DNA from: Schmidtea nova
Lineage: Eukaryota
Length of the DNA: 64,000 nucleotides
Direction of reading: 5' to 3'
Assembly (NCBI GenBank): GCA_044892505.1
Contig: CM097882.1
Span: forward strand, 75,082,001-75,146,000
The notes below the pieces were generated by a model. It did no database searches. It saw only the letters and a program-made list of their open reading frames with translations, and had not been told where the DNA came from. The first letter of the stretch is position 1. Each line of letters begins with the position of its first letter. Both the position numbers and the translations under genes were made by a program. Below, one piece after another: positions 3,716-43,880 of this stretch.

Positions 3716-3969
3716 AAAGTAACATTTATTTAATTCTTCGGGTTATTTTCATAATAAAACTTGTTTAGTTAAATTGGTTATTCTTAGTTTTTCTGATATT
3801 TTATATTACGTATTTGTAACTATTACTACACACAATCCACTACACAACAAACACCCCGAGTGTCCCAACAATTAATAGGTGACTCTCTCGGGATCTACAA
3901 GTCTTCTCCACATCACACGTACTACAAAATAAAACCCAATTAGAATAGTACATTAGAACTTATAATAAC

Positions 3970-3982
3970 TGGTGTCAGAAGT
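3970..3982 (+). promoter_or_regulatory. Primer-binding site, tRNA-Leu-type
   Basis: TGGTGTCAGAAGT directly after the LTR; complementary to the 3' end (..ACTTCTGACACCA) of animal tRNA-Leu. Confidence 0.8.
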
Positions 3983-4155
3983 CAACACATACACACACTC
4001 GACGAAATTTTTCTCAAATCACCTTTTCCTTTTAGAATAGTTAGTATAGAACTATAAAGGAAGGTGAGATCTTTTGGCTGAACACAGTAAGCCATATCCT
4101 TAAAACAAACTCGATTTTTTTTTGCATCAACAAACAACACTACACATAAAGACAA

Positions 4156-5214: not shown

Positions 5215-5222
5215 AGTCACCA

Positions 5223-8200
5223 ATGATCGCACCGACCATTGGTGACAGCCAAACATTCACGGTGCACAGCAACGGTATTAACTTCCTCGTTGATACCGGT
5301 TCAATAATTTCCTTACTGCCGAACTACCTCTACAAAAACACAAAAACAGAAACCCCAAGTTTATGCGCAGCAAACGGCAGCCCTATCAAAACATTCGGAA
5401 AACAAAACATCGACATTTCCGTCAATAATATAAAATACAAGTGGCAGTTCACCATCGCAGAAGTGAAACAAGCCATATTAGGAGCAGATTTCCTCGCAAG
5501 ATACAACTTACTAGTCGATTGTAAAAATGGGAAAATTATATCAAACAATTCAAATAACTCAACCACCAAAAGTAACCAATCAACAAAACAAACCAACTGC
5601 GACATTGGAGTGATAACAGCTCTACACGGTGAAATAAAAACGAATGAGCAGAAACAAAAATCAGAAAATAAGGACGGACATATTCCTAATGAAATCATGA
5701 AACTGATACAAACAATGCCAAACATAACAAACAAACTACAAACAATTAGCGAAACTAAATGCATAACTGAACACGCAATAATAAGCAATGGAAATCCTGT
5801 GCATGCAAAAGTCAGACAGTTGGACAAAAATAAACTCGAAATAACAAAGAAAATATTTGACGAATTATTAGAAAATCAAATCGTCAAACATTCTAATTCA
5901 AATTGGTCCTCAGCTCTCATGCTTAAAGAAAAAGCAAATGGTGAATGGCGTGCCTGTGGAGACTACAGAGCACTAAACAACATCACAACACCTGACAAAT
6001 ACCCAATTCCTATCATAAATGATATAATTAACCGATTCAACAAACCCAAACTCTTCAGCAAAATCGACTTGGAAAAAGCCTACCATCAAATTCCCGTCAG
6101 AGCGGAAGACATAAAGAAAACAGCGATCATCACACCCTTAGGCCTCTATGAATACAACAGAATGCCTTTTGGTTTAAAAAACGCTGCGGCAACGTTTCAA
6201 CGTTTTATGGACCAAATCCTGCGAAACCAACGAAATACAGTCGCTTACCTAGACGACATACTTATTGCGTCCACAACCAAATCGGAACACATCGAAAACA
6301 TAAGAAATGTGTTGGAAATACTCAACAAACACCAACTAAAAATTAATACAAAAAAATGCCAATTCTTAAAAACTGAAATACAATTCTTGGGACACTTGTT
6401 GAATGAATCGGGAACAAGACCACTAGAGGACAAGATAAAAGCAATAAAAAACTATCCATTACCCAAAACAACAAAAGAACTAAGACGATTCCTGGGGATG
6501 ATCAACTTTTATCACAAATACATACCAAAATGTAGCGAAATGTTAGCCCCTCTCAACGAATTAAACAAAATAAAGAGAAATATTAAAATAAATTGGAACG
6601 AAAATCTAATAACAGCGTTTGAACAAGCAAAGGAAAATCTGAAAAATGCAAGCATCCTAAGCTACCCTAATCAGGAATTACCATACATAGTCAACACAGA
6701 CTGTTCAGGACTAGCAATGGGAGGAACTATATTCCAAGAGGAAAACAAGGAAAAACGACCCATAGCATTCTTTTCAAAGAAATTGAAAACGCATCAAATG
6801 AGATACTCTACTTTCGACAGGGAGTTATTAGCGTTACACGACACGATCAGGCACTTTCAATACCTACTGGAAGGTAAAGAATTCGAGGTGTATACTGATC
6901 ATAAACCCCTAATAAATGCAATGAATATGAGAAATCCTTCACCGAGACAAATACGACAATTGAATTATATTTCACAATTCAATTGTAAAATAAAATACAT
7001 AGCAGGATCAGCTAATATAAGTGCAGACGCATTATCAAGAATCGAAACTGATATCAACGCACTAAACATACCACCAATCATAGAGTTAGAAAACCTAAAA
7101 ACTATACAAAAACAAAACATAACAGAGTCTCCGAGGATGAACTCGCTCAAATTGGAAGAAATAGACGGAATCTGGTACGACACTTCAAACGACAATAATA
7201 AAAGAATCATTGTACCGCCTGAATTACGCGAACAGTACCTACAGAAATATCACAACCTTTACCACCCAGGAAACAAAGCCACATATGAACTTTTGCATAC
7301 CAAAGTAATCTGGCCTTACATGAGAAGGGACGTAAAAACCTTCGTTAGAAACTGCCCACAGTGTCAAAAGAACAAAATAACGAAAAAACAATTTAAAACA
7401 ACGGTGGTACAATTTCCAAGTTCGGAACCTTTCGAAACAATACACATCGACATAGTCGGACCTCTACCACCCAATAACAAACACAAGTATTTGTTAACAA
7501 TAATAGATCGCAAAACAAACTGATTTGAATCCATACCCATAAAGGAAATATCCGCAGCAAAGATTTGCAACAAATTAGAACTAAATTGGTTCGCACGGTA
7601 TGGTTGCCCAAAAACAATAATCAGCGATCAAGGTAGACAATTTGAATCCGACATTTTTAAAGGACTGTGTAATAAATATAACATTAAGAAAAACAGAACA
7701 ACAGCGTATAACCCCCAATCAAACGGAAAAGTGGAAAGATTACACCGATCTATAAAACAAGCTATCAGAACAAAAACGAACAACAACGATAACTGGTTGG
7801 GAAAATTACCAGAAATTTTGATAGGATTGCGCAACAACCCATCAAGCTCAAACAACAAAAGTCCTAGCCAATTGGTATTTGGACACAACACAAACCTGCC
7901 AAACTTAAAAGACGAAACAGAAAACAAGGTTGAGGCAAACTACGAATTCAACGAACCACAAATGACCAAACTAAAAAACACTCTGAAAAACAAAAACAGT
8001 CAACAAACACTAAACCAAACCAGACTAATAATAGACAAAGTCTTAATAAAGAAACCTTTCACAAGTGGTTTCGAAACAAAATACGAAGGTCCATACAAAT
8101 TACTAAATTTGTAGAAAAACGTCGGTACTATCGTAAAAGACAACAAGTCAATTAAAATAAACATACGCCGATTAAAACCATTTTACGAAAACAAACTAAC

Positions 8201-8357
8201 ACCATCCAACATCGACCACAACCAAAACCCTCCAGACAAAACCCCAACAAAACAAAAACACATCTCATTCGACACCAAAAACTCAATAAAACTATTCGAC
8301 AAGGACACGATAATCACACCCCTATACAAAAAACGATATAGCGAGTGCCTCAAATAA
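5223..8357 (+). pseudogene. pol: Pol (PR-RT-RNase H-IN) with two in-frame stops in integrase
   Basis: Motifs FLVDTGS, MPFGLKNAAATFQR, YLDD, YTDHKPL, H-H-C-C zinc finger. TGA at 7521 sits where Trp is expected (DRKTN*FESIP). Frame continues through SDQGRQF and NGKVERLH. TAG at 8112 follows EGPYKLLNL and the frame continues to INIRRLKP, ending TAA at 8355. The -1 frame is open from G_GAA_AAC (5202-5208), a candidate slippery site. Confidence 0.9.
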
Positions 8358-8567
8358 AGTTACATAAACATACACAAGCAAACACAGGCACAACATAGCT
8401 AAATGTACAGTTTTTAGTCTTTTGTAAATATGTAAATGTTATGGTTAAGACGTTATAAAAACAACAAAACAAATACAAAAACAAAACAAAACAAAACAAA
8501 ACAACAAAAACGAGTTGTCAACATGGTTAATCTGTTAATTTTTATTCTCTTGTTAACCTCCGGTTTT

Positions 8568-8578
8568 AAAGGGGGAAG
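8568..8578 (+). promoter_or_regulatory. Polypurine tract
   Basis: AAAGGGGGAAG immediately before the TGTGAATG start of the 3' LTR. Confidence 0.85.
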
Positions 8579-8581
8579 TTA

Positions 8582-9568
8582 TGTGAATGTCACATTTTAC
8601 TGTCATTTTTATATGTTTATTTGCTGTTGAGGATATGAGCGCCGTCATTGTTATGGACGGTGCCTTTGCGGTCACCTGGGCCCCCCCTTTTTTATTATGA
8701 CTGTTAATATTTATTTTATTATTGTTATTATTACAATTATCTTTATTTAAAATTTGAATTTGGCTTACTATAGCAATTTGCTATAGTAAGCCAAATTAAA
8801 AAAATCAGAAATAACGATTAATTTTTAAATTATGAATTAATACTTCAACGAGAAATATTTTGGCAAATTTTCATTGAAATATCTAGTACTAATTTGGGAA
8901 AAAATTACAAGAAAACCAATTATAATAAATCCAAGAAACTTTTCCAACAATTATATTTTCCAACGCATTTTCCAGCTGTATTGTCGAGAAAAAAGCAAAT
9001 TAATTTATTCCAGTTAATTTATTCCAACAATTATATTTTCCAACGCATTATCCAATTGTATTGTCGAGACAAAGCAAATTAATTTATTCCAGTTAATTTA
9101 TTCCAAACAATTATATTTTCCAACGTATCATCCAACCGTATTGTCGAGATAAAAGCAAATTAATTTATTCCAGTTAATTTATTCCAACAATTATATTTTC
9201 CAACGTATTATCCAACCGTATTGTCGAGACAAAAGCAAATTAATTTATTCCAGTTAATTTATATCAGCGATTATATTTTCCAACGTATTACCCAACTGTA
9301 TTGTGGAGAAAAAACAAAGTAACATTTATTTAATTCTTCGGGTTATTTTCATAATAAAACTTGTTTAGTTAAATTGGTTATTCTTAGTTTTTCTGATATT
9401 TTATATTACGTATTTGTAACTATTACTACACACAATCCACTACACAACAAACACCCCGAGTGTCCCAACAATTAATAGGTGACTCTCTCGGGATCTACAA
9501 GTCTTCTCCACATCACACGTACTACAAAATAAAACCCAATTAGAATAGTACATTAGAACTTATAATAA
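8582..9568 (+). repeat. 3' LTR (987 bp)
   Basis: Starts TG after the PPT; matches the 5' LTR to TATAATAA. Confidence 0.95.
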
Positions 9569-14869: not shown

Positions 14870-15557
14870 GTTATTACAGGTCATAAATCTGTTAAAATCG
14901 TACGGACAAAAAGATTTATGTTCGCCGAATCTGAACTGGTAACAAATAAACGAAAATTCAAGCATGTTTTGAAATTTTTCTCGGGATTTTATTCTTATCA
15001 ATATTAAGAATGTAATCTACGGGATAGTAAAGAGTTAAAATACGAACTAATCTTTATATTAATTTATAATTTTCGTTAAATTATAGAAAGTAATCATATG
15101 TTATATAAATATGTTTGAATTGTAATTTTTTCTTTTACCTCTTGCAGTAATGAATCATCGTTGTAGTTGATTTTTTTAATTATTGTAGCTGTTTAATATA
15201 AAAGTTATCGGGAACATCTCATTTTCAGTAATATTTTTACATATCTACTAGATTTAATTTTAAAATTCGAAATTAAGGATCAAGAATAATTGATAGTAAC
15301 AGATTATCTGAATAACTAATACATATAAGGTCCTTTGAACTCAAACTTAAAGACATGATATCAAAGAATCAATTCCATGTATTAGATGTGAACGAAAATA
15401 AATCAATAAAACAAAAACTAGAAATTTTATGTCTCCAAAATAAATAATGTAATAATTATTTTTCAATATAATATATATGTGTGTGTTAAAAGATGGGCGG
15501 ACAATAAAAATACTAAAATTAAAACATTACACAATAGGGGGGTAATAGGTATAGAAT

Positions 15558-18219
15558 CAGTGATGAGCTGCCAAACATGTTACAACCGGTTCTATAAAAC
15601 CAAAAACTAAAATTCGTTTTATTTTAATAAAATATCATTTTATTTGAATAGATTTTTTTTAAATTATTATAATAATTTCCAAATGATTTCATTATTTTCA
15701 TTAATATTTTTTTGGCGCATTTCGAATCCTGGTATCATCAGCTGAATTATGATTCCTCAACCAAGTTTTGACATATTCTCCAGCATTCCATGATTCAAGT
15801 GTGGTCCAATCATATTAATTCTCATTAAACTAGAAATATGTTCTACTGAAAGATTAGCTCTTCTTTTTTCACAAATAATATTCATTAATGAGAATCCTCG
15901 TTCGGCCTCTGATGAACTTTTAGCAATGGTGTTATTTTATTTTTAGCTTTTTGAATTGTTTCTATTTCAGAGATTTTTCCTTCAATTACATTTTGAACAT
16001 AATCTCTGAAATCATTAATGGGAATTTCGTATCTAATTATTTCATTTAAATTTTTAAATTTTTCTTCTCCAAAAATCCACGGACAAGTAATTTCTTCCAA
16101 ATTCCAATCAGCTTCAAGTAAATTAAATAATTCGGCAATGTCGTTATTTTTTTTCATTTTTTGTCATTCTTATATGTCTACAATTTAACATTCGGGAATT
16201 CATTTATTCAATTATTGTTTCAATAAGTTTTTTTCTTGGGAGACTTTCAAATTTTTTATTTTCCTCAAAAGGAATATCTGCAAATGCAGGTGACGACAAC
16301 ATTTGTTCAACTTTTTTTTTCAAATGTTCTTAAATTTTCTTTCAAATTTCGTTGCCTTTTGAAGGGTAACAAACCTAGCTTGTAATCCTATTGACAAATA
16401 GGACATCTCTTGAAGAATATCGATCATAACCGCTAAATCCTTTATAAAATATTTATTCGCAAGTCGGTTTGCCATACCAAGATATTTGGAATCATCTTAA
16501 AAAATTTGTAGTGGTACATAAGCCCGCCAAACAGCCATAGCAGATCTTAAGCTGCATGCTGCCCATCTTGGGCCTAAGACTCGACCTATTTTAATTATTT
16601 CCACTTCCAAATCTCGTGATATATTTTGTAAGCACAATTGATTTTTATTTGATTGAAGAAAAATTACATAAATTTTATCGATAAATGATTTAAAATGATT
16701 CACTTGCTTTATTTCGTCTATTGCGTCATCCAAAACCAGCTGAAGACGATGGTTTAAGCAATGCCAAACTATTACATAAGGAAATTCTTTTATTAATCTT
16801 GTAGCAACACCTGACTTTTGACCAAGCATTGTACTTGCACCATCAGAACAAAAACCAATCAGATTTTCTTTCAAAAAATCCGTCGAAAGCCATTTGAGTT
16901 TAGTGTTTGCATTAGAATATTAAAAATATGCTCAACGGTTTGGGATTCTAAATGAACTAAGTAAAAAAAAAATATTGGATTTTCTTTTTCCATTTCAAAC
17001 TTCAAAAAAATGACTAGCACCGATTTGCTTGATATAGTTGAGGCTTCATCTATGATTACGCAAATTTTTGAATTGGATGCAATTATTTTTTCAACAATTA
17101 TTTTTTCATTTGTTTTGCTATGTGTTCTGCTATTCTAATTGCACTAAACCTAGAATGAAGCGAAATTCCAAGATCTACCCCATTTTTAACCTAAAGTTCA
17201 ACTTCTGCTTCCATATCTGAAAGCGGTCTATTTCTTTTTATTAAGCTGTAAACAATATTGAATATTTTATTAGTACTAGCCATATTTTTGGGATTATTTG
17301 AATCGATAATTCTGGGTAGTTCATTTTTTTCTTTTTGTTCAAGCATTTTTAAAACCATTAAATGTATTTTTGATTTAAAATGTTCAGACATTTTTTTTCT
17401 TAATGAAGCCTGTTGAATAACTTTTGTTGTTCCATATGGTTGAATTTCAAAATTTTGCCATTGTTGTGGAATGTGAATGTTTTGTTCTTTACAAATACCC
17501 AAATTATCGAACGAGGAGCATTTTAGACATCCAAGCTTTTTATTTTTGACCTCCAAGCCATTATATTTAGCTTGAAATAGCTTTAATTGGTCACCATTCC
17601 AGCAATCTGGAAAATTATTCTCTTTTTCGATATTGGCTGGTAGAATTTTAGAGCAAGATACTGTTGCTGATTCCTGGCTTACGCTTAGAGTTACAGTATT
17701 TGAAATATTTTCCTCTTCTTCTTCATAGTTTTTTTATTATTATTAAAATAATCACGAATATTAGTTTTGCGTTTCATTAAATTTTATTTCCTAAAAGAAT
17801 GGGCTTATTTAGGATATAAAGTAGAAAATATAAATATACTCACAATATATTAATAATTGTTTATAAATAAGATAAAGGGATTCTTGTTTTTCTGGTAAAC
17901 TTTATTTTATTTTTTGTAAAAAATAGTTTTTTAAGCAGCACAAAATTATTACTTCTAAACTTTAATAAAAAAAAGAAAATAATGTTTGCTAATACACACA
18001 TAATAACTTTTTTAGTGAAAGAAATCTCAACGCCAACTTTGCAATGAAAATATTTAAATTTTAAATTTATTTGTTGTTTTTAAATATAGTGTCACCTATT
18101 AATTAGGTATCAACAAAATTAATTTGTTGATTCCTAATTAACAAACGGTTCTATAAACTACAAAAAATTTAACAACCGGTTCTATAGAACCGGTGCGAAC
18201 CGGCTACAGCTCATCACTG
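15558..18219 (-). mobile_element. Full-length hAT DNA transposon with decayed transposase
   Basis: TIR CAGTGATGAGCTG at both ends; 8-bp TSD TATAGAAT; subterminal AACCGGTT repeats. Confidence 0.95.
15667..17777 (-). pseudogene. hAT transposase (ZNF862/KIAA1586-like), fragmented
   Basis: Start MKRKTNIRDYF; motifs [39 protein letters not shown]; pieces at 17191-17556, 16497-16874 and 15885-16157. Confidence 0.85.
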
Positions 18220-19512
18220 TATAGAATTAACATAAATATACAGGAATGATGCAAAATGCCAACAATTCAGAGTACCCATCAACAATTATTTAATAAAAAT
18301 TTGTGATTTGATTACTTTGACAATTATCTTTGTTTTATTTTATGTGATCATCCCTATTGATTTTTATATGAAATTTGACAATCTATATGATTCACTAATC
18401 CTTAAATCGAATTTGATGAATTTTATATAATTAATTTTATTATTATTTATTGATTTTGTTGTTAATTGTTTCTTAACATGACAATAATTTAATTAAATTC
18501 AACGAAATACCGGGTTAGGACCCCCATACATATAATAAATATTAATATAATTAATTAAAAATTATTGTCCTCTAAGGGTTAATTAAAAAATAATTCTCAA
18601 ATTTTTAATGAAACATTGTGTCAAATAATATTAGCACCAAACAGGTTCAAGACTGTTGATTTAGAAATGTAAACTCGAGCTAAAGACACTGATTGTTCAT
18701 TTAGATGGGACGAATTTCACGTTTTTCCTCGAAAAACGTGCACTTGGACAAAAATTAGAGGATTATACATTTCATCAGATAGAAGTAAATGATGATAAAA
18801 ATTATTTTTGACTCTAGTATACTGACAAGAAAAATATTAATTTTGTCAACTTATAGTAATGTATAAAATAATTAATTAAATATTTTTCTAATAAATAGAT
18901 TTTTTTTATTTGAGAATTTATTCAATTTTTTAATAATTTAATCTTATTAATTTAATGATGTGTAGACGCTACTTAAAAATTATTTTATTTTTTATAAATT
19001 ACTAAAAGCATTGAAAATAAATTCTGAAAATAATCATAACAATTTAGTGTTGTATTCTAAATAATACTGAAAAAATCTCAATTTTCATTAGTTTATTTGA
19101 TCAAGAAAAATGAAATAAACATTGATTTTTGAAAAATATGGATCGTGTAAATAATTTGGAAATTTTCGATTTTTAGTAGCACTTAAGTGCTTTTTGTTTG
19201 TATAAGTAAAATGTTCGTTAAGAGCAAATAACAAAAGAAATTTTATCAATTTAAGATTTGTTATTTCTATTAAATGGTGAAAATTTAAATTTGTTAACTC
19301 ACAATGAAAATCATAAAAAGATTTGATTAAAAAAACAAATATTATGATAAGCATTACCACTCAAAGTAAAAAACAACAGGATTTCACTATATAAGTCAGT
19401 CAAACAACCCCATTAAAAATTATTGGACATAGAATTTTTGAGATAATCGTGAAATAACATTGATAATCAACCCGAAATAATTTATAATTTAAGAAACCGA
19501 ATAGTATATAGA

Positions 19513-22500
19513 ATGGTGCAAAATAATGATAATATTAGACATATTTGGCAAAATACAGATGAGGGATGAACCTTAAAAGTTTAATGACTTTTTCGATGAA
19601 ATTACCAAGTATGCAGAAACTTGTGGGTGGACAAGAGATGAATTAAAAAGAAGAATACCGTTATATTTAAAGGGTTATACATTACAAGAATATAATAATT
19701 TAGAGTGTAAGTGTAGAAACTTGAAGATTTAGTCGATAATTTGAGAGGTGAAATAGTAATTGAGCGAGATTTACAAAAGATAAATTTTCAAAAATTTCGA
19801 AATAGATATCAAGGTAACAGAGAAACAATTGGGGAATATGTTTATAAATTTAACCGAATTAGCCCGAAAAGCCTTTGGTGTAGGAGAACATACTACAAGA
19901 TTAATAGAGGATCAATTTTGGAATTTTATTCAGAAACATTTATATAAATCTCTGATAATGGTAAAATACGAGGATTTAAATGAGTTAGTATAAAAAGCAC
20001 GAAGAATTAAAGCCATACAAAGGGATAGATTTAATTCTGCGATTGATGCAGTAGAAATTCAGGAAATTGAAAAAGAAAAAATTAAGGTAATTGATAAAGA
20101 TGATAACATCCCTTGGGAGGAGATGAAACAATTATATCTAAATTATGTTAAGAATAGAAGAAGGACTAGTCCAAGTCCAAATCGTAGTTTAATAACAATA
20201 ATAGATTTAGTAGTCGGAATTTAATGATGGAAATACTTATGTAGAGAACCATAGAAATAATTATTATGATCAAGAAAGTAGGGGTCGAGGAAATTATAAC
20301 AGGAGTAGTCGTTTTGGAAATAATCGTTACGATAATAATCGTTTGTGTTAATCAGAGTTACAGGGCTAATTATTTCGAACATACTCGAACAAATCGATTT
20401 GATGAAAATAGAAATAGTGATAATATAAATAATTTTGAGTGAAATAGAAACAAATTTAGAGAAAGGAGAATGAGCTCTGGTCGACAAACTTTAAATAGAA
20501 ATAGACGACTTAGTCCATTTAATAATGATGAAAAAGATAAAGTTAATTTTCGCGGAGAAATAAGATGTTTTAACTGTCAGAAATATGGCTATATGGCAAA
20601 AGCATGTAAAAATACACGTGTCGAATCACCGAATAGAGTTCAATTTAAGAAGGAGCCTGAAGTTAAGCAAATAAATAGTATGTAGGTTAAAGAATCGAAT
20701 AATGAAATTGAGATGATGAGAGATTAATTACAAGAATATAAAACAAAATATGAGATTAATTAAAAGGAATAAAATCAATGTATCGATAAATGAATTCAAA
20801 AGTTTTACAAATAAAGTTAAGATAGAAAATGAAGAGTTGAGACAACAGAGAGAGAAAGATGAACAATTTTAGCAGAATTAGATAGACAAATTATTTTGAA
20901 ACCTGAATTAGAGGAATCTTTAATAAATTATCTAGTAGATGATAACGAAGTGTTGAGAATATTAAATAAAATTCATGTAGAAGGAATAAATCTGGAGAAT
21001 ATGAGAAATTTGATACCATTATTACTAAAGAAAGCAACACGAATATTTGAATTAGAAGTTGAAATTAAAGGTGTTGAAATGTTATAGTGATTATGTCCGA
21101 AGAAATGAAAGAAATAAGGAACCACTAGAAATTACATTAGAAACATGATAAAGATACGACGAGAATCATTGTTCATAAACAAGGGGTACATGCGTGTTCT
21201 AAGGTAAAAAAATATGAAACAAATAGGCAGAGAAAATTGGTAGAGCGAATTAAGAATAAATGATAAAATAATATTATATTTTTCTGGGATAAAGATGCAA
21301 ACGAAGATTGTTTATTGGGTTACGGGCTAAATGCCAGCGAAGATAATGTGATAACAGTCTCAATAAAAAGAGGCTTAGGGGTAACTTTAGATGAACAGAT
21401 AGTTAATAAGAAAATTTCAAAATCAGGTTTAGATAAAGAAGATAATGAGGATAATGCAAGAGGAGCTATAGGAGATATAATAACCCCAACGTTGGAGGAA
21501 AAGAGACTCCCAAAAGCCGAGAATAATAGTATTGCTGAGAAACTAAAAGAAATTGCAAACAAAACGTCAAAGAAATATAAGGACGTTGACGTTCTAATAG
21601 ATTTAATAAAAATCATGTATCCTAAATTATATGTGGACACAAAAACTCCATAATTTTTATTAATATATAAAAAAATTAAAATTATAGAATCAGAGATAAA
21701 AAATTAATAAAACAGGAAGATGAAGTTCTAGACACCTTATTTGCCACTGGAATCGATGAAAATGAAATTATAACGGCGTACCGTTTTTGTAGAGCAGATA
21801 ATGTTATAAATATGAAACCGAAGGAATTGAGTAAAATAACGAAAAAGATATTTACGAAGTTACAAAATAATGTGATACCATGGAGACATACGAATGGAAG
21901 CTGAAAAATCTCGTAATGAAAATGTTTCAATAGACTTGGACGTAGAACAGCAATATATTGAAGACAGAGAAATTAAAAGAAATCTGAAAAAGATAATAGA
22001 TAAAACAATGAGAAAATTAGGGAAAAGTGATCATAAATTGTTAATGTCTACAATAATAATGATGATAACAATATTATTAAGTATAATAAAAGGATGTACG
22101 GGCATGATAGCATACGACTCAAAATCCAAAATGGGGACAAAATTATTCATTATTAGATATAGAAAACTGTCCAGGAGCAAATCCAATCAATCTAATTACA
22201 ACCGAACCTAAATTTTTTCACGTATATCAGGAATCAGATTTAATACACACCGAAGCGAGAGAATGTATAATTAGATATTCTGAAGAGGCTTTTGTATGCC
22301 ACAGCATAGAACGGATAATCTTAAGGCATTCATTTAATCCGGATACTATTACGGTAACTCCAAAAGAAGGTGAACTTGCATTTAAATAAAAAAAAATAAA
22401 GATACGTGAAATTGAATTAAAAGCACAGATATGTACAAGCGTAAAACAACCAGTTGATGTAGTTGGATGGTCTTCACATGGTGGAGAATAAAAGATATTG

Positions 22501-23450
22501 GGGCATACCATAGAAAATGCTATTGTGATATATATATAGTCGAGCTTAGACAATTTAAAGCATCTTTCAAAAGTATAACACAAAAGATGATGATATATCC
22601 GTTCTGTACATCAAAAGAAATAAGTTGCGATAGCGGAGAATCAATCATGATATATAAAGTCGATTCTTACGAATGTCCTTTGACTAAACTAAAATCACTA
22701 AAATAATGACAATAAAAGGCAGACAATTTACAAACTCAGAATCAACAAAAATAAAAGATAAAAAACGAAAGACAATTGTGGTTCAAGAAAAAGATACAGC
22801 AATGATATACATGGCAGAATCTTCAGGAGAAGCAATGAGATTTATAAACAAATAACTATGTGTTAAATGTAAAAAATCGAAAATGCAGACCAATTATAAG
22901 GGTATATATTTAAGCAAAGATGAAATAAAAGATGCAAAAATAAAAATCAATAAATACGATGTCAAACTTTCATCATACTTTAATAAGAAGATAGATTACT
23001 TTTACCATCACCAACTGATCCAACTAGATAGAGTTTACGAAGAAACTATTATCAATGATTGTAAGCTTAACCGAAAAATCCTAAGGAAAAAGATGGCATT
23101 AGCTATCACGAATCCACACTTAATGGCCAAATTCTCTTCTCAGAACGAGGTGCATTTGCAAGAGTTGAAGGGGAAGTATTACAAACCTGTCAATGTAAAC
23201 CAGTCAGTGTAGCAATAGCTACAAACAAATAATGTACAAACGAAATTATATACCAAAAAAGATAGACAAATGTACAAATTTACTAGATACTTTATATTAA
23301 CTAGATGATGAAACATGGATAACAATGTCAGATAAAAAGGTAGCAATAGCACCCTTTAAACTAGAAATGACAGAATTAGTTAATTTGTCTTTTGAAGAAA
23401 TTCACCACGAATATCACCAAGAAGTCGAGGATAATAGATGGAATTCAAAT
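19513..23450 (+). pseudogene. Decayed relative of the 29680-44890 element: Gag - helical/Ubl - Bcl-2-like - signal peptide - chuvirus-type glycoprotein
   Basis: Gag RRIPLYLKG and FQKFRNRYQGNRETIGEY; knuckle CFNCQKYGYMAKAC; helical module 20896-21087; Ubl tail LLGYGL..ITVSIKRGLG; Bcl-2-like 21719-21904; MIAYD; HVYQESD..RECIIR; TNYKGIYL..NKKIDYFYH..IINDCKLNR. All are collinear with the intact polyprotein. No LTR or pol seen. Confidence 0.85.
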
Positions 23451-25929
23451 TCTAATCCTAAAAAACGTAAATTACATACCACTTGATATGCAAAAATGAA
23501 AGAAAATAGCCCGATTAATAGAAATCTCACAAGTGTAATTGATAATCAAAACAACAAACGAACGGAACGAAATTATGAATCCGATTCCAATGAAACAATT
23601 AACTTTAAAATGATCAAAATTAATGATAGTTTCTCCAGTCGATATGGCCATAGCATAGACGATGAGGTGAATTTATTCTTTTTTGTAAGTAATTATTAAT
23701 CATTACTCGATCTCAGCCTCACAATCTGTAATACCTTTTGTTCAGATTTTTAATGATATTCTAAAGAGAATTTGAAAGTATCTCGACTAACTAGAAATTT
23801 TTATTAAATCACAAATCTTCATTTCATGATTTTTAAATTGCGCACAAATTTTAACAAAGTTGGCTAAATATAAATTTGAGTCATTCCTGGGTTTTAAAAG
23901 TAATTCGATGCCACCAAGTCTCAGTTTGCGAATTAGTGAGAAAACAAAAATTAATTTTGTCTTAATCGTTCAGACATTTATTATTAAAAAAATTTAGTAT
24001 TTTTCAGAATATTTAATCTAGCAGGGCAGGGCAGATAATGTACTAATAAATAAATTAATTTAATTAATTAACAAGTTATCAATCAAACAATTTTAATTAA
24101 TTATTATAATGAACCTAAATAAAATATCATACTACGAAAACGTATATAGGATCAAGTACATTATCATACAATATCATATTGGAATAAACAAAAACTCAAG
24201 TTAAAGTCTCTAAGAGGAGTAAGAAGAGTGGATCAGCCTTCATATATTGCAGAATTTATGTGAAAAGAAATTTATAAAACTATATCTATAATACCTTATA
24301 TGAAGTAATTAGATTATATAATTAAAAAAATAGTTTAGTTGTCATTAGTTTAATTATATTTTTCTATTATTTTTTATTTTATTTAAATTTAGGGCAGATA
24401 ATGTACAAATAGTAAATCAGGGCAGATTGATCCGAATTTCCTTTGAAAAACATTTCGGAGCATCAAAATATTTTAAATCAAATTTCATCAAGTACAATTG
24501 ATAAATTATGTTTTTACCATCTAATAAAAATTGATTTTCGTAGGCATTCATTTCGATTATCAATCGAATAATTAATTATTCTAATTTTTTCAGTTATCAG
24601 TTGTAGAACGCCTCAACTCGATTAATTTTATAAAAACAATCTAATGATTTATCGAAGAATTAGCTATATGTAAGACGATCAGTAAAAGAAAAGGAGATAG
24701 TGAGCACAACAACTATTTATTTTAATTAAAAACTGATTTCAATATATCGATCTAAATTACCGCAACGTAATATATTAGCGACAAGAACTATTGCACAATA
24801 GTGTCGCAGTATTTTCTTGCACACTATAAATTGATCGAAATTTATTATTTTTTTCATTATTTAATATATTTTCTGCAGAATTTCGTAGCTTAACTGAACT
24901 GTAAAAATATTAAATGGGAGTATTTATATTGTAATTTGCATGTTAGTTTAATTATCGATGTATACATTAAATTTAATATATTTCAGAGACATTTAGATGG
25001 ATAATCTCATTGATTATACCAGTACTATCAAGAAAAGCTGTTTCTCAATGAGGTTAAGCGTTGATCAACTTCTCAATGAAGAAGAGAAAGAAATTGCCAA
25101 AAATACCATCAAAAGTAAATCAGTCTACTGATGCTCCATGTGATATACCATCCAAAATTATTACAGGCGCAAACCGCAGCTGATTGGTAACTTTAATGGC
25201 AGATATACATAAGGACGATAGGAGGTCTCAATTTTTTAATAGGTGTTACATGGAAATGCCCAGATATAGTATTTATCATCAGCAATTATCTACACCATAA
25301 TTATTACTTTTGAACTATGACCAAGCACTTTTCATTACGAGTAGCAGCTTCAGTTTTTCAAAATGTAACATTTTTGTAGTGTATCTGTGCGCAAACCCAT
25401 TACATTTTTTGTTTTGGACTATAATGCTATTAATTGGAAGCATTACAAGTTTAAAGCAGGTTATTATTAAAAATTCAGCGTTTATTTTAGTGAAATTTCA
25501 AAATCTTTGAAGATTTCAAAAAAATCATACAATTTATTCTATAATATAGAATCTATAAATAAAAAAACAAATCTAATCAATCGAAAAGTAACTTAACATT
25601 GAATTTTATTCCTTAATTGTTAAATATTTCTAGGTTTAAATACACCCGATCACCAATTTGGTTGTAAATATTGTGACCATTCCTAATAATAATCAAATAA
25701 AATTTCTTTCAAGTGTAACCAGAGCCGGCGCCCGAGGCGCAATCTTGCTTGGGGCGCCATCAAGATTCTTCTACATAAAATTTCGATGTGCGCAACGAAA
25801 TAGAAAGTGTTTTTAAACTACTAATTTAAAATTGTGAAATACAGTGATTGATTTATTTGTGAATTGTGAATGATTAATTGCGGATTATTGTTTGTGATTT
25901 TCTTATTTTTATGAATAGATAAGTCTTTT

Positions 25930-27073: not shown

Positions 27074-28523
27074 TCAAGGGTTCCAAAAAACATTGGAGAT
27101 TACTGTGTCAATTAGAATTAAATTTATGTGCACAACAGTGGGTAAAGAGCGCATATGGATCAATCTGCCTAACTCTTGCTTGGAGACCTGATATTTCCCC
27201 GACATTGTGCTAGCTCTATCATATGACTGACCAAAACACATAGTTATTGACAAATCCAAGTTTTCAATTGCTGAAACAAGAACGTTGAACAAATCTTGGA
27301 CACTTGCTCCAGGTAATTCACTGAATTTTATAAACCTCTCTACTGCATCGCCATTTTCTGTTACATATCTCAAAGATAAAGAAAACTGGTCAATGCTACT
27401 TATATCAATAGTTGAGTCAACAATCACTGCAAAATACTTAGCTACTTTGATTTCATCCACAATTTTTGATAGAATCTGAGATAATATGGATTGTATCAGA
27501 TCATTTTGTATATCGGGACTGAGATATGTTGCATTTCGATCACTCAGTAATAAATGTTGTTCCAATATTGCATCATTTTTAGCCAACAGTTTAATCAGTT
27601 CCAAGAAATTCCCTTCGTTTGTCACTGGTGAACCTAAGCCTTGATACTCACGATGGCCACGGAATGTCAATCCTTGTTTTCCAAAAAACAGTACAGCATC
27701 AATGATACATTTAAAAATCATCCTATTTTTTCTATTTCTTTCTTTTCTGTTGTCAGAAGACCAGACAACACAGTTCTATCGTTAAACAACCGGAATTTTG
27801 TCAGAAATAGTTCTTTCTCTGCTTTTTTGTGACTTTCGCTACTTTCATGTTTTTTCAATTTTGTACGTGCCTTTAGCAAAATTCTTGCAGCCAATTTTTG
27901 GATCACTCCAAATATCGGATCGACTAGCAAAAAGCCAACAAGCAAAACAAATCATTATATTAGCTTTTGGTGAGTAGACCAGCCAATGTCTATCAATTTC
28001 ACGACAACCTTTTACTTGTTTCTTCTTATACCAATTAGCACTGAAATGACGTTCAGTTTCATCTTTTGGGAAATTTTCAAATTTATCTTTAAGACCCGGC
28101 TAACTCAAGTAGTGCACGAACAAGTTCTGGCGTCACAGGTTTGTCACAAAACAGATGTGGATCTGTTGAGTATTCCATGTTTGGATCAATAACTGCACGA
28201 AGTCTTATTCTTACTGTGTCATCTTCATCCTCCACCATAGAGTCTGTTGACGTAATCAGGCCTACTGTTGAATCAGAACCCACTTCCTGAACAGTCACGG
28301 CAGCCGGAGTTGTGGTGTTGTTATCAACTCCTAGATTTGTTGTGAATTCTTCTTCTGGTGCCGCAGACGTTGTTGTATTGCTGAATGAAAAATATGCATC
28401 CAATTTTGCATATTTTGAAGATTCTCTTTCACGATCTTCGACTTCTTTTTTCCTCTTTTTATCCCATCCAGATGGTCCAGACCGTTTCTTTCTTTCAGTG
28501 TTATTTTCCATTAAATTTTCCAA
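27074..28523 (-). pseudogene. hAT transposase N-terminal half (ZMYM1-like)
   Basis: NEGNFLELIKLLA, YLSPDIQNDLI, FAVIVDSTIDIS, GQSYDRASTMSG, HCCAH; truncated just after the HCxxH motif. Confidence 0.85.
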
Positions 28524-29679: not shown

Positions 29680-30034
29680 TGTTAGGATCAGGCCTTTGGC
29701 CTTAACGTTTTGAGGTTTTAATAATAGTAATAATAAATTACTAAAAATAATTAAAATAAAATAAAAATAATTTAAAAACAATTGTAAAACAAATATAGAA
29801 ATAAACATTTACTAAAAATAGAACCAGGCCTTTGTCTGGTAATTGCTAGAACACATTGGACTATAATCGGCAATTATTTATCAACAAAATCGACGTAGGT
29901 CGATTTAATTTTAGTATAAATAATATTGAATTTCAGTTCAGAGGGGACGACGAGACGAATAGAAAAACAACGTGTGAGAGAAAAATAATTAATTTAGAGT
30001 GAACATTGATCGATAACCTACCGCATCGAAAGTT

Positions 30035-30069
<35 letters not shown>

Positions 30070-30675
30070 GGAGAGAACTGTTAATATTTTTGGGAGAAAA
30101 AGAAAGAGCAAAGAAACAGAAAGGAGGAAAAGAATAACATTGTTTTGAAAAGAAGTAATTTTTTAAATTGGTCTAAAAACGTTTATAAAGTAGAGAGTGA
30201 AAGATAAATTTATCTTTTTGGGTTGAAAAATCATTTTAGTTGATATTAATTTTTAAAGCGAATACAAAGTAAAGAAGAATTACTTTAGTATTCTCTGGGT
30301 GCCCCAAAATCATTCCGCTTGCTTATCCACTCTTGTAAAAATATTTCTTAGCGATCGTTGTGTTACTGAGGTGCCAACGATTTCTTGCAGACTGTCACAA
30401 ACAGTAGGGATTAATTTAATCCGAGATCTTTATTGTTCTGTACATCGATAAATTTTGTGAATAATTTAATTATTGTTTTGTAAATTGGTTAAATAAAATT
30501 TGAAAAGAATAGTTAGTTTTCATTTACAGATTTTACCTGTCTTTAAAATACACGCAACCACATTAATTTTGTTATATTTATATTTATTCATTTATTTATA
30601 TATAACAACTTATATAGATATAAAATAGGAGTCAATTTGTGTTAAGATCAGCACCCCTATCTTTTGATCTTGACA
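29680..30675 (+). repeat. 5' LTR (996 bp)
   Basis: TGTTAGGATC...TCTTGACA, with internal (TA)n. Confidence 0.97.
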
Positions 30676-30678
30676 TTT

Positions 30679-30696
30679 TGGTGAGCCCGACGTGAT
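30679..30696 (+). promoter_or_regulatory. Primer-binding site, tRNA-Trp-type
   Basis: TGGTGAGCCCGACGTGAT; one mismatch to the complement of the animal tRNA-Trp 3' end (TGGTGACCCCGACGTGAT). Confidence 0.85.
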
Positions 30697-30809
30697 CATT
30701 TTTCGGGGGATATAAAAATATTATTTATCAGAAACAGTTTTCTTTTTAAATCATTGAGTTAAGAAATAGGAGAATAAATTTTAGACCAGGAAATAGAAAT
30801 CAACAGATA

Positions 30810-33800
30810 ATGGCAGACATAAATAATTTACAAAATGATAATAATTTACAAAATAATGTCAATAATAATAATGTGCCAGTAGCTCAACCACCAGCGGTAG
30901 ATTTTATGAGATACCCAACAATACCAATTAAACCATTTAGTGGGAACCCAGGAGAGTTTCCAGAATTTATGTCCGAATATTTTCAGTTAGCCAGAGCATT
31001 AGGTTTCCCTGAACCGGTAATGATTTTGAGATTACCTTTATATCTAAAAGGGATGGCGCGTGAAATATATAATGATGTTATTATAGCCGAGCATCCAGCT
31101 GAATGGAATGTATTACGGTTAGCGTTACAAAATAGAATATTACCGGGGGATGCAACCAGAGTGCTAAGACAACAATTTTATAATAGGAGACAGAATTTGG
31201 GTGAGCATGTTGGGGAATTTTCTTATCAAATATTAATGTTGGCAGAGAGAGCTTTTGGCGATAGGGCAGCTTGGAATGAGGCAACCAGAGCGTTAGTAAA
31301 AGACCAGTTTTGGTCAGGGTTATCGTCCGCAATGAGAAACGCACTCAGTTTACATATAGGGGATAATTTAGAGGAATTAACTCGTAAAGCTTGCTTAATT
31401 GAAAGTAGTATAGAGAAGTTAAATAATTTCGCAATTAGTACCAATAAGTCCGACATTGAGTGTTTTAACTGTCATAAAAAAGGCCACATATCTAAAGATT
31501 GTAGGAGTAGGAATAATCCCATAGGGGAAAAATCATGTACCAAATGCGGGAGAAACAATCATGTGGCGGCAAACTGCAGATTTTCGGACTTGAGTTGTGA
31601 GAAATGTAAACGCAAGGGACATGTAGCGTCAGTGTGTAAAGTTAGGTTTGGGGAGACTACCTCTAGTAATAATTTTAATAATAATAGAAATAGAAGCCCC
31701 GATAGAAATTTTCAGAATAATAATAATAATAAAAATTTTCAGAATAAGAGTAATAATTTTTCAAATAATAATATAAAGAGGGATGAAGTGAATTCGGGGG
31801 GTAAAATTAAATGTCATACGTGTGGAAAATTTGGTCATATTATGCGTTCATGTCCACAAAATCAGTTGAGTAATAACAATAACAGTAATAACAATAATAG
31901 TAATAGTCGACCGAAACAGACTACGTTTACAGTGAATTCTGATCACAAATTAACATATTTACAGCAGCTTGAATTAGAAATTCAAGAAGAGAGAAATAGG
32001 TTAGCCAGGCTAACGACAAATGAAATCGATGAATACGGCGAAGATGAAGCCGAGGTGTATATGTTGTCAGCCAGAAAAGGGCGCAACAAAGATAATAATA
32101 AACAGAGTAAATTAAGTAATGATATTGTAGCAGAACTTGAGGTATTGATGCTTCAAGAGAGTCCACAGGAGGACCAAGAGGAAAAGGCTATGGTCGTAGA
32201 ACCAGAGGCTTGTGAGGGTTTACCGGTTTCACCCAGGAAAAATCGAGTGGCTATGGTCACAGAACCAGAGGCCAACAGGGAAATAGAAGGTTTACCGGTT
32301 TCACCTAGTAAAAATCGTAAAGCCATGGACATAGATCCAGTGGCAAATAGAGGATATCCAAAAGAAGTTTTGGAAAAACGATGGGCTTCGGTCAGTGAGC
32401 CGGAAGTCTTAATAACCACATCATCCCTGAGAAATGATGGTGGCAGCAAACCGATAAAAGTTAGAGAGGCATCGAAAGAGGAAGGTAATCCCATCGATGA
32501 TTGTAAAATGCTATTACGTCATAGGAACGTATGGCAAAGAGAAATAGAACAGAGGCTAGAAAATATCAGATTAAACCCCATTAACGAGAATGAGGTAGAT
32601 AAAATAATGGATATCATATTAGAATTAAATAGAAATGATGAGTACCATCCGGTATTAAGAGAAATCCTGCGAAGCATAGGATTAAGTTGGAAGCAAAAAG
32701 GAGATCTAGAAGATTCCATAGTTTTTGTTGTCCTACCCAGAGGTTGTTTTTGTAGATATACAATAAACCCAAGAGAAAAAGTCGAAGCACTAGCCAAGAA
32801 AGTCGCTGAGGTAAAACCTCGATTGAAATGCGAACTATATTTGTTGGGAGAAAGATTATTGGAGGGAGAAGCCTTACTAGATTGTGGTATAATACCAGGA
32901 AAACAAATGATAGTAAAAGCAAAGTTTCACAAGGAAACTGTCACGATAGTGGACTCTGATAATGTCCTAACCATAACGGAAATGGAAATTGAACAATTAA
33001 ATCAAATATCAGCGGTACCACAAAGGTTGGGGACAGAGCTGATGCAAAACCCGAGGGACGGGGAAACCATTAAGATGATAATGGATTGGATATTGGAGTT
33101 ACGAATTCCAGTAGATACTCTTAGAGAGGTTATGCCATTGGTGGTGCCTTTATTGAAAGAAACATCACCATTCCAAACGCAAGCAAAGATGCTAGTAATC
33201 AAAAATGGGCATGCTATTAGACACCAGGATAATAGGCAAGGTCCAGTCATGTTAGATATCAGGATACCCAGGAGAGGACACCTGATACAACAATTTTCGT
33301 GTTTCCATAAAGTCAAGAAACTGAGGAAACGAGTGGCGACAATAGTAAAAGAGTCATTTATAATAATGATACACGGTTGTCAGGTTGATGACGACGAATA
33401 TTTAGTGGATGTAGGATGTTTTCCTCAAGAGGAAACTATAGTATTGATACTATTGGTCGAGCTTCCAGAGGACCAATGGGCAACACTGAGATTGCCAGAT
33501 GATGCTGAGTTAGAGAAGGATGAGATCCCTCCCGAGCAGCAACAAGCAGGTGAAGATACCCGCCTACAGGCAGGAGAAACAGTAGATTTAGACGCGGAAA
33601 TAGACAAATATTTACGGGAATTCGACAACACTGAGGATCAGTTGATCGAGATAATGCCATCTTTGGAAGATGAAAGTATAAGATTGAATCAAAAAGAAAC
33701 GAACATCGGAGCTAGTACGTCACAGGGAATTGGGCCATCAAGAGATAGGATGAGCCCGAAACTTGTTGTAAACAGGAGAAAGAAGGAGAGAAGGGGGAGA

Positions 33801-36800
33801 CCGAGAAAGAGTCAAATGAACCCGCCTCCAAGAGAACTCCTAAGGCCTACCACGATACAAAGCGTAAACAGGCAGGCTTTGGCAGGGATAGCCAGCCAAA
33901 TTGATAAAGGCACAAGAGATTTTAGTGCTAAAACGGAAACATGGAGGAGATTGAACCAAATATTAAGACTGATGAAGCCTGAGTGGCAAATCAAGAAAGA
34001 TAAAGCTATAAATGTTGAGAAAATTACAAACAAGATTAAACAAGCAATGAATAAGATTCCAGGAAGCACAACTGAACAGGAATTGTTCGAAGTAGCAGGA
34101 CAATTCATGCAAGAAGGGTTGACAAAAGGGAAAATGATAACAATTTTAGCACTAATGTTTAAAAACACCGTAATAATACTCAAGGATGATCCATCAGGAA
34201 TTCAAGTAGCCTTAGACAGGCTGACTGATATCATTGAAGTGAATTTTGAAACATGGATGACGGAACATAAGTTTTGGGAGACAAAAGAAACGAAAGGGAA
34301 ATATGAGATAAATGAGGAATTGTTGACAGAACATATCCCAAGTAATTCGCGGGGAACAGGTGGATTCACTAATTGGATGATGATGTTATTAGTAATGATG
34401 GGAATATTGAGACAGACAAACTCCTTAACAGCATACGACTGTAGCGAACCGATATTAGCACGGATTTACTCATTGGTAGACACAGTGGAATGCAAGGAAG
34501 CATATCCAGATAAAGTTGCAAAACGAGAGGATGCAGAATACCATGTTTATCAGCAAACAGAGTTTTATAGGACCAGGGTGAGGGAATGTCGAATACAGAG
34601 AGCGACATTTGAATATTACTGTGGATCACACAGTTATACAGCGTTTCTAGGAGCTAAGCTCATTCCAGTACCATTGATAATCCCACCAGAGGATTGCATA
34701 AATGCTTTTAGATCAAAAAATGTCAAAATAGATGACGAAGTGACAATCACAGCAGAGGAAGGAAAGAAGCTGGGTATAACGATTACCAGAGGAGGACCGA
34801 TAGCAGATGATGGTTCTTGCACCGGTAGAAAGAAATTAAGAGGTTCTAATATTGTGAGTTATGTAGTAACAGTTGAGGATTACACTGTAGAGCTAATAGA
34901 ATACGAAGGAACATTTGAAGTATCCACGGGTAAAATGATGTCCCATCCTGAATGTAATGTAAAGTTTGGGTATTGTAAAACCAGTACAGCGGTACTGACG
35001 TATCAATCAATGAGAGAATTTTGCGATTTGGGATACTTGAAAAAAGTAGTGTTTTCAAGACTTGATGGGAAAAGTTTTGCAGCACAAGAGTCACACCAAA
35101 GCGGGTGGGGAGATAAGATAAACCACAAGACGAAAAAAGAGAAAGTACCCGAGAAAAGCACAGCAGTAGTTTTAGTCGCAAAAGATCCTACCGATGCTAT
35201 CCGACTAGTTAGAAAGAAGCAGATAACAAAATGTGGTGTGCCAATATTCGAAACGAACTATAAAGGAATATTCTTAGCATACAAATATGTGCCGGCAGCA
35301 GAAACATTACATTTGTCAGATATAAAAATAGCGAAATATATCAATAATAAAATTGACTTTTTGTATCATGATTTACAGAAGCAACTATTAGACGTTTACC
35401 AGGAAGTGATCTTAAACGATTGTCGTTTAAACAGGGAAATAATACGAAATAGATTAGCAACATCTATTTCGAACCCTGATTTAGTAATGCCAATGTTAAC
35501 CGAGGAGGGAACATTTGGTAGAATTTTGGGAGAAGCAATTTATAGCTATCAATGCAAAGCGGTGGAGGTAGAAATAACCAAATACGATCAATGCACTTTA
35601 GAGCTTCCAGTAAAATATAAAGGAAAATTAAGATTTATGATACCAGTATCACATCAGTTGATGGGAGAAGAGGCAACTCCATTGAAGACAATTTGTAATC
35701 CGGCAATGTCACCACTATACAAAATTAACAATATATGGATTTCCTTACCAGACAGGAAACCACCTTCTAAACCAGTAGAAGTGTTGCAGGCTACTAAATT
35801 AGAAAACAAAATGGAGTTTCGACCATTAAATGAGATGTCAAAAGGGGGAGTATATACTCAAGAAGATATTGAGGAAGCGAGGAGAGCAATAGTGTTTCCT
35901 CAAATCAGAGATAGAGGAGTGACAGAGATAATAACTAGAATTTATCAATCATACGACGGAAAACCGGACTATAATTTATTATTTGGACCGGAACACTACA
36001 AGCAAGCCGCATCAAATGTGATACGGAGAATCTGGGGAAGATTCACAAGCTTCGGAATTTTTGTAGCAGGATGTTCAGGCATATACGCCATAGTGATGAT
36101 ATTGAAAATAATCATATCACAATTATTTTCCACATATAGTATCTTCAAGATCGGAGGATGGTCTTGGAAGTTGCTATTGGGAATGTGCCCACTTTGTGCA
36201 GATTTCGCAGTATTTCATCATCACAATAAAGAAATCAAGAAAATGAAAAGACAAAATGAAACAAAGCACGAAATAATAAAGTATGAATATAGTCATCGAG
36301 ACGATGACAATTCTGACGAGGGAGGTAACCTAGAGGGCGACAAGACCTCATATAACACCTCAACAAAACCAGACAACAAAAAACCGAATTTTCAAAATTT
36401 TGAAACTAGTACTTTTCAACAGTACCCTGTTAAAACAAAAAGACGAAAACAACAGGAATGGCCTGTGAAATATGTGTCTCCATATGAAACTAGGAGAAAG
36501 ATAATACCAGAAAAAGTAGAAGAGGAGATGTTGAGGCGTTTCGATTTTAGGACAAACGCAGGTATTTCAGCACCTCCTATACATTCAGAGTATCACATGA
36601 ATTTCGAGACAATGCCACCTTTGGGAACATCGATATTGGAAACGGTACCAAAATATCCATTTAGCACGTTAGAGAGGCTAAAGGAAAATTATCAAGATGA
36701 AATAAAATCGGAAGACGACAGAGATAGCGAGAATCAACAGAAATTCAGAGATAATATTCGAGGAATATCAACAGTGTTTATGGTAAATTCCAGCAAAAAG

Positions 36801-43878: not shown

Positions 43879-43880
43879 CT

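Follow-up and report, generated by a model that had tools for sequence, protein, structure and literature searches.

Upstream of an apparently complete retroelement in the genome of Schmidtea nova lies a region broken by stop codons and frameshifts, which a preliminary description of this DNA had read as a fossil relative of that element with the same order of parts: Gag, a helical module, a ubiquitin-like (Ubl) domain, a Bcl-2-like domain and an envelope glycoprotein (G). The locus raises the question of what this region is, and whether a module resembling regulators of cell death was captured once by such elements and retained for a function. The window analysed here is the whole 64,000-nucleotide stretch (GCA_044892505.1, contig CM097882.1, positions 75,082,001 to 75,146,000 of the forward strand), and coordinates without a locus name refer to it. 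We find that the region at 19.4-23.4 kb is a dead, truncated copy from an older subfamily of a high-copy, envelope-bearing Ty3/gypsy element, whose open-frame copies we call family B; the neighbouring element belongs to family A. The fossil copy consists of a split 5' long terminal repeat (LTR) and the stretch from gag to the middle of the envelope, without pol, and after its decay it now codes for nothing. Its parts are as follows:

15482-15557, plus strand: 5' LTR, 5' piece; 89% identical to the solo-LTR-like locus L135, where it is contiguous with the piece at 18219, and 82% identical to the first 58 bases of the family-B LTR
15558-18218, no strand assigned: later insertion of about 2.7 kb splitting the LTR, seen as a collinearity gap against L135; holds a 180-aa minus-strand frame with no Pfam match
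18219-19395, plus strand: 5' LTR, main piece; 79-91% identical to loci L135-L138, whose 3' parts are 78% identical to the family-B LTR
19412-20080, plus strand: leader and broken Gag capsid domain; the blastn match to L031/L032 begins at 19412, and the capsid (19568-20080) is 89% identical in amino acids to the B copy, with 2 stops and 2 frameshifts
20081-20874, plus strand: stretch rich in Arg, Gly and Asn (RGN), one CCHC knuckle (20548-20637) and a coiled-coil-like stretch, from the alignment to B; PF00098 in the B copy
20875-21127, plus strand: helical module; 81% amino-acid identity to B
21128-21380, plus strand: broken Ubl (beta-grasp) domain without a C-terminal di-glycine; 81% amino-acid identity to B, 1 stop and 3 frameshifts
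21510-21917, plus strand: broken Bcl-2-like domain with remnants of the Bcl-2 homology motifs BH1 and BH2; 69% amino-acid identity to B
22032-22103, plus strand: hydrophobic, signal-peptide-like segment before G, the predicted tail anchor of the upstream protein, from hydropathy; a like stretch occurs in seven families
22104-23383, plus strand: class III-type envelope glycoprotein, N-terminal ~460 residues, cut off before the membrane anchor; 79% amino-acid identity to B, PF24664 in the B copy
23379-23678, no strand assigned: unrelated dispersed repeat of about 300 bp at the truncation point; 79-90% matches at many loci

The extent of decay is apparent from a frameshift-aware alignment to an open-frame family-B copy, in which 12 stops and 18 frameshifts fall within 19453-23383; a thirteenth stop at 23484 was left out of the count because 23379-23678 is a separate repeat. 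These 30 breaks in about 1,310 codons compare with 2-3 per 1,000 in other B copies, roughly a tenfold difference, and the changes found only in the fossil have a ratio of nonsynonymous to synonymous variants (pN/pS) of 0.41, nearer neutral than the 0.10 on the B branch. Fossil and family B align over 19412-23383 at 82-83% DNA identity and, domain by domain, at 69-93% amino-acid identity, with one spacer at 55%. The 5' LTR is missing ~300 bases at its 3' end, and the primer-binding site is lost too; since its kin at L135-L138 match it at up to 91% yet the B LTR at only 78%, the copy comes from an older subfamily. No pol match was found between 23383 and the family-A element, and the fossil itself is a case of ordinary decay. 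Six-frame reading together with the frameshift-aware alignment places the named pieces where the preliminary description had put them and in the order it gave, including a stop at the expected BH2 tryptophan: the in-frame stop at 21902-21904 stands opposite the Trp of open-frame copies, where the aligner itself scored a frameshift at 21900. The end of the fossil lies at 23383 rather than at 23450.

A different picture emerged for the claim that the fossil aligns collinearly with the intact element next to it, which is the following:

29680-44890, plus strand: family-A element; LTRs at 29680-30675 and 43881-44890, polyprotein at 30750-40328 with two helical-Ubl modules, a Bcl-2-like domain, G, and pol in the order protease, reverse transcriptase, RNase H, integrase (PR-RT-RH-IN)

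This 15.2-kb element has LTRs that differ by one mismatch and one gap in 1010 columns, a 4-bp target duplication and a primer-binding site. It had been called intact, yet its frame meets a stop after 3192 codons; in many sister copies reading continues to 3544-3551. In a tBLASTn search, the 3172-aa protein of A matched the fossil significantly only in Gag (E 1e-7 and 1e-4) and G (E 3e-6 and 2e-30), and with the frameshift-aware aligner these two matches were beaten by 0 of 300 and 0 of 100 shuffles, respectively. Across 20.85-21.95 kb the same type of local alignment scored 37, a value that 74 of 300 shuffles of the DNA and 197 of 300 of the protein also reached; a lack of alignment across 20.9-21.9 kb had been named beforehand as the finding that would tell against the fossil reading, and in the direct comparison that alignment is lacking. 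The homology was recovered through family-B copies. Against a B copy the two middle segments of the fossil score 730 and 419, with shuffle maxima of 47, and family C, the sister of A, scores 47 against both middle segments, above all 200 shuffles. Profiles of one clade against another align over 149 columns for the helical module plus Ubl (E 2.6e-6) and over 117 columns for the Bcl-2 domain (E 1.1e-4). Judged from these comparisons, homology between A and the fossil across 20.9-21.9 kb is indirect, by way of the open B copies and the clade profiles. Pfam gives neither a Bcl-2 nor a ubiquitin match in the middle of A, and A carries two helical-Ubl modules where B and the fossil have one.

Candidate copies of the fossil's middle 1.1 kb number 527 genome-wide; the 40 that were scored all match it, and leaving out the window's own copy their identity is 80-85%. 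Among 29 other loci, eight have an open frame across 4.1 kb, which together with the copy number bears out the earlier argument against misassembly. The genome-wide search for intact members that had been proposed also found them: two family-B loci traced outward contain 2,993-aa frames between 1.64-kb LTRs that are 99.2-99.4% identical, with primer-binding-site-like sequence, and measure ~14.1 kb from LTR to LTR. Working copies of B have a single open frame in the order Gag-helical-Ubl-Bcl2-G-Pol, and their pol is 40% identical to that of A over 1,167 aa. No RNA run was listed among the public sequencing runs matched to the B module, a word-based search of 5.8 billion proteins with this module (longer proteins only) gave 0 matches among 6,112 candidates, and a search of the ESM Atlas gave no usable match.

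In the B copy, the Bcl-2 region matches PF00452 with E 9.6e-5, below the curated cut-off that copies of the D and E type pass, and its best PDB match has E 2.3e-4, with the Bcl-2 family filling all 60 of the best rows. A profile of the A clade also finds Bcl-2-family chains first in the PDB (best E 0.004), and the top 7 rows for the structural model in VIA are all Bcl-2-fold proteins. The model itself is weak, with a predicted local distance difference test score (pLDDT) of 60 and a best Foldseek E of 0.07 (none under 0.001), and its VIA Z of 6.6 (root-mean-square deviation, rmsd, 3.7; 116 aligned) is below the noise guide for helical bundles. The NWGR motif of BH1, whose Gly and Arg are important to the way Bcl-2 and Bcl-xL bind BH3, is eroded in 7 of 7 aligned representatives (one E-type copy has NWDR), which speaks against the anti-death role considered below; what persists is the BH2 Trp pattern and the amphipathy of the helices, and nothing else of the motifs. 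The Bcl-2 identity is carried by the Pfam and PDB sequence matches, and weakly by the fold. The Ubl fold is well supported by modelling: the predicted structure (pLDDT 88) is a beta-grasp fold that finds SUMO1 in Foldseek (E 1.7e-4) and reaches Z 10.9 in VIA (rmsd 1.9, 74 aligned), and the Ubl profile matches ISG15 (E 5.6e-5). No conserved GG follows the last Ubl strand in B, E, D, A or C, so the Ubl is an integral domain of the polyprotein. For the helical module, the model of an open copy has four helices (pLDDT ~90) and no convincing family was found, the best hits of a PDB profile search being designed helical repeats; a resemblance to the TFIIS N-terminal domain was not supported (profile probability 1.2%, E 0.045, equalled by 1 of 100 shuffles), although these profile comparisons, made without folding the module by itself, rule out no fold. 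The glycoprotein exceeds the PF24664 cut-off in families A, B and G (E 1e-52 in the B copy), and Pfam identifies pol in the gypsy order PR-RT-RH-IN in families A and G.

We found the cargo in seven families with long frames, of which A, C, G and H have two helical-Ubl modules and B, E and D have one, plus a fragment, F. A genome-wide search with PF00452 returned 1,679 candidates; 141 of the 150 scored match, mostly within element frames. Thirteen of 30 Bcl-2 loci that we fetched are not flanked by element proteins and were treated as cellular, 11 of these entering the tree, in which a branch with support of 96/92 separates 15 element rows from 13 cellular ones. Three clades (AC, GH and BED), between which pol is 45-58% identical, appear in the pol, G, capsid and helical-Ubl trees, and the Bcl-2 tree recovers AC and GH. 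Identity of the cargo follows that of pol (rho 0.54 for Bcl-2 and 0.87 for helical-Ubl, the pairs not being independent). Further, a profile search of 1.84 billion representative proteins gave 31 proteins, of which several have Gag-Ubl-Bcl2, Bcl2-G or the complete order and a few are unrelated (poly-Ubl or cellular Bcl-2 proteins); the metagenome relatives P0004, P0005, P0013, P0022 and P0027 have the same order. These data, together with the selection on shared B variants described below, support the view that the module was inherited along with pol from the common ancestor of the seven families, that is, one capture followed by long retention. The earlier claim of a single old capture stands in this respect, as the families share one Bcl-2 branch and the cargo trees follow pol, although retention is not universal: the metagenome relative P0010 has Gag, helical-Ubl and G with a low-complexity stretch in place of any detectable Bcl-2 domain. 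The Bcl-2 tree has long branches, host rows that are exon fragments and metagenome rows drawn from an element-built profile. Within B/E and G/H the Bcl-2 domain has diverged far faster than pol, being only 47-48% identical where pol is 89-90% identical. P0010 also has several protease-like repeats after G. An AT-hook-like RGRP motif lies between Ubl and Bcl-2 in A (L071, residue 1044), C, D, P0004, P0005 and P0008, and is found in P0010 as well; it is absent at the Ubl/Bcl-2 linker of B, E, G, H and the fossil.

Retention had been offered as an argument for function. The fossil is not itself such evidence, being decayed while young copies with open frames exist in its family; selection on the cargo is seen in the active lineages. 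In family B, where 26 of 27 copies picked for DNA similarity were used, Bcl-2 variants present in at least two copies comprise 13 synonymous and 10 nonsynonymous changes (pN/pS 0.21), and singletons comprise 14 and 56 (1.12; Fisher p 0.0015). The helical-Ubl region has the same contrast between shared and singleton variants (p 0.0006), and the low-complexity RGN stretch of B does not (p 0.46). From this contrast, the variants indicate that active lineages constrain the amino acids of the cargo, with moderate purifying selection. We did not use the within-family figures obtained for A and D, whose copies had been picked by protein similarity to the Bcl-2 domain. Between families, the ratio of nonsynonymous to synonymous substitution rates (dN/dS) of Bcl-2 overlaps that of linkers. 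Bcl-2 dN/dS is 0.14-0.45 (B/E 0.28, B/D 0.45) vs 0.02-0.10 for capsid, G, reverse transcriptase, RNase H and integrase, making Bcl-2 the fastest-diverging folded domain, and the linkers have 0.2-0.6 (RGN-rich 0.24; the stretch after the transmembrane segment, post-TM, 0.26-0.58). Between families dS is near saturation, and the shared variants of the Bcl-2 domain differ from those of the RGN stretch at p 0.09 only; all of this tempers the case for constraint.

What the cargo might do is suggested by its position. In all seven families the Bcl-2 domain is followed by a short spacer, a hydrophobic stretch ending in small residues and then the conserved start of G, and the hydropathy peak of this segment is 2.1-2.4 in B, E and D. 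Cellular Bcl-2 proteins have a C-terminal membrane anchor, and a signal segment placed directly after the Bcl-2 domain would supply such an anchor in the same way. From hydropathy and the small residues at -3/-1, signal peptidase would be expected to cut before G; Gag-helical-Ubl-Bcl2 would then stay cytosolic, tethered through the signal segment, with G in the lumen and Pol held behind the anchor of G until the element protease frees it. Going by Bcl-2 family biology, the tethered domain could engage signalling proteins of the host, from the Bcl-2 family or otherwise, and would probably do so by a route other than a canonical NWGR groove. Two points count against this topology: in A and C the segment before G is under the hydropathy threshold of 1.7, and the assessment of signal-peptide cleavage drew only on inspection by eye and on hydropathy. 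We consider it somewhat probable that the Bcl-2-like domain of the element damps host cell death or stress signalling during element replication, an anti-apoptotic role that we infer from these features. A bolder version is possible, though doubtful: a radiation of compact elements would have turned the envelope signal peptide into the tail anchor of a captured Bcl-2, and the resulting Gag-fused, membrane-bound death regulator would determine how readily stem or germ cells of the host enter apoptosis, as a second anti-death cargo older than the inhibitor of apoptosis (IAP) of Burro1. On this view the source would be more than 1,000 element copies, two orders of magnitude above the roughly ten host Bcl-2 loci.

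Other explanations can be weighed against this role. The Bcl-2 fold may have been exapted structurally, into a matrix-like spacer beside the membrane that links Gag to the signal anchor for budding and has no part in cell death. Such a use would agree with the constant place that the domain takes in seven families, after Gag and before the signal segment, with the loss of the BH1 motif throughout while only the BH2 Trp pattern and amphipathy are kept, and with the rapid divergence of the domain. However, P0010 keeps Gag-Ubl-G without Bcl-2, so the fold is not needed for the architecture, and a multicopy element of the same genome with TRAF-like and BIR-RING frames points to repeated capture of cell-death regulators, and we regard a mere spacer as unlikely. 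It is less likely still that the domain does little and, once captured, persists through its in-frame place between gag and env-pol. Whatever lies in frame ahead of pol is shielded from stops anyway, and Bcl-2 dN/dS between families (0.28 for B/E, 0.45 for B/D) resembles the values of 0.24 in the RGN-rich stretch and 0.26-0.58 in the post-TM stretch, but the shared B variants show constraint on amino acids and not just on the frame (p 0.0015), the Bcl-2 and Ubl folds are recognisable where pol fell to 45-58% identity, and a useless 150-aa domain would be dropped by in-frame deletion, yet seven families have preserved its length.

Multiple separate captures into one slot, each of another host Bcl-2 gene, would account for a between-clade Bcl-2 identity of only 13-22%, and for the fact that B alone has a direct tBLASTn match to a host locus (L081; 34%, E 4e-6). 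Given that the element domains group together against the host rows (96/92), that the flanking architecture is identical and that the cargo correlates with pol, within the limits of non-independent pairs noted above, this seems very improbable. Finally, the idea that the middle region is a chance reading or was misassembled, for which one could cite the lack of a significant direct alignment to A across 20.85-21.95 kb, is already refuted by the scores against the B copy, far above the shuffle maxima, and by the hundreds of genomic copies; four public runs from one study, which may be the source data and not independent, also contain 80-87% of the words of the B module. The damping of host cell death or stress signalling is the reading that we carry forward.

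The best sequence and fold matches of the Bcl-2-like domain include the viral Bcl-2 homologues canarypox CNP058, ASFV A179L, vaccinia F1L and herpesvirus BHRF1/M11, and the cellular proteins Bcl-xL and Bok. Like these, the element domain would be a captured host fold with a C-terminal hydrophobic anchor; unlike them, it sits in a retroelement polyprotein, its anchor would be the envelope signal peptide and its NWGR motif is eroded. Certain Bcl-2-fold proteins of poxviruses target innate signalling and not apoptosis.

The arrangement of Ubl, BCL-2 and envelope has already been published for Burro. In its passages on these elements, the review by Arkhipova and Yushenova (PMC6431247) describes Burro/GYPSM1 as giant gypsy-like elements of dugesiid planarians, >30 kb with LTRs, whose ORF1 of 4,870-5,140 aa encodes a polyprotein of Gag, a Ubi2/SUMO-like domain, BCL-2, an envelope with matches to mononegavirus fusion proteins, and PR-RT-RH-IN; Burro also has MATH/TRAF, BIR and ankyrin domains and a dUTPase-like domain placed between PR and RT, and decaying Burro fragments are noted there in another planarian. 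The present families share with Burro, compared here by its published description, the single polyprotein with the envelope in frame between gag and pol (seen in B, A and G, the fossil having only gag to mid-envelope) and the placement of Ubl and then BCL-2 just before the envelope. They differ in that they are 14-15 kb long with frames of 2,990-3,550 aa, and have one or two helical-Ubl modules and a second predicted membrane protein after integrase. Pfam finds no MATH/TRAF, BIR or ankyrin domain in the four frames of A, the polyprotein of G, the downstream frames of B and G or the first 1,370 aa of B. Genome-wide, the dUTPase family PF00692 gave two candidates, both matching and both in one 177-aa frame, and no giant dUTPase-bearing Burro was seen, though a diverged domain within reach of HHpred only could be missed. 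Size and accessory domains set these families apart from Burro proper, so we regard them as Burro-like in the way they work and file them as compact Gag-Env-Pol errantiviruses of that kind.

Six Gag-Env-Pol elements of S. mediterranea with an envelope of the HSV/gB type are reported in the text of an errantivirus survey (eLife 2026; PMC13524379). Of these, Smed_errantivirus_3 and _4 resemble the present families in their Gag-Env-Pol order, class III-type envelope and loci of ~14.5-15 kb; by eye, the Smed_errantivirus_3 envelope is about two-thirds identical to that of family B (45 of the first 67 residues compared) and Smed_errantivirus_4 resembles A and C. Figures aside, the strings 'Bcl', 'ubiquitin' and 'apopto' are absent from the main text of that survey, and 'Bcl' from its 7 supplements. 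A further parallel is the IAP carried by Burro1, a BIR-RING protein. According to a second-hand account in PMC13465017 of work by Lee et al. (2026, Dev Cell; PMC13047482), it guards the stem cells of planarians against apoptosis; it too is an anti-death cargo on a planarian gypsy element, and differs in being a BIR-RING protein. We found no paper testing an element-borne Bcl-2, although Lee et al. 2026 and Grohme et al. 2018 may bear on the point.

Relative to these reports, what is new is that the Ubl-Bcl-2 module appears to be ancestral, selected and massively amplified, together with the tail-anchor hypothesis. Rather than a quirk of the giant Burro, the module occurs in at least seven compact families of one genome and in metagenome relatives. 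With 1,679 Bcl-2-like candidates, such elements could weigh on host cell-death control, and their copies confound counts of Bcl-2 genes in such genomes. The 2019 review, in the part that treats the Bcl-2/Ubl cargo, called for an experimental test of it (PMC6431247), and the compact families offer small natural domains for such work.

At its 3' end, the frame of element A runs on for 329 aa past the stop (40326-41318); this extension opens with a signal-like segment and has a hydrophobic stretch at its C-terminal end. The polyproteins of B, E and D have two hydrophobic peaks after integrase, and G ends in a hydrophobic stretch, which suggests the second membrane protein predicted above. A conserved accessory frame also lies 3' of the polyprotein (41527-43598 in A and L033:2461-4368 in B; 22% identical, E 3e-14); it has no Pfam or PDB match (635 aa in B).

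A multicopy element with frames encoding Ubl-protease-ankyrin, RING-TRAF-MATH and BIR-RING was also seen in the genome (L128:911-9407, and L132). BIR candidates number 1,295 genome-wide, and all 150 scored match; two BIR-bearing loci have no pol within ~20 kb upstream and so provide no Burro comparator. It is possible that this BIR-bearing element is a non-autonomous derivative of the Burro type.

The window also holds a small gypsy element without an envelope at ~3003-9370 (gag 4150-5214; pol 5196-8114, with a stop), which has 80-bp tandem repeats in its LTRs and served as an outgroup, a DUF4371 (hAT-like) transposase fragment at 27074-27775, and a probable DNA transposon at 45160-46884 with 128-bp inverted ends and a split frame. 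Elsewhere in the genome, a piece matching the start of family-B gag forms a tandem array of ~20 units at 1,150-bp spacing (G000:C2:248590231-248612429), and frames with the TFIIS-N-terminal domain (PF08711) are tandemly expanded at G000:C1:216191207-216252340 and in other clusters.

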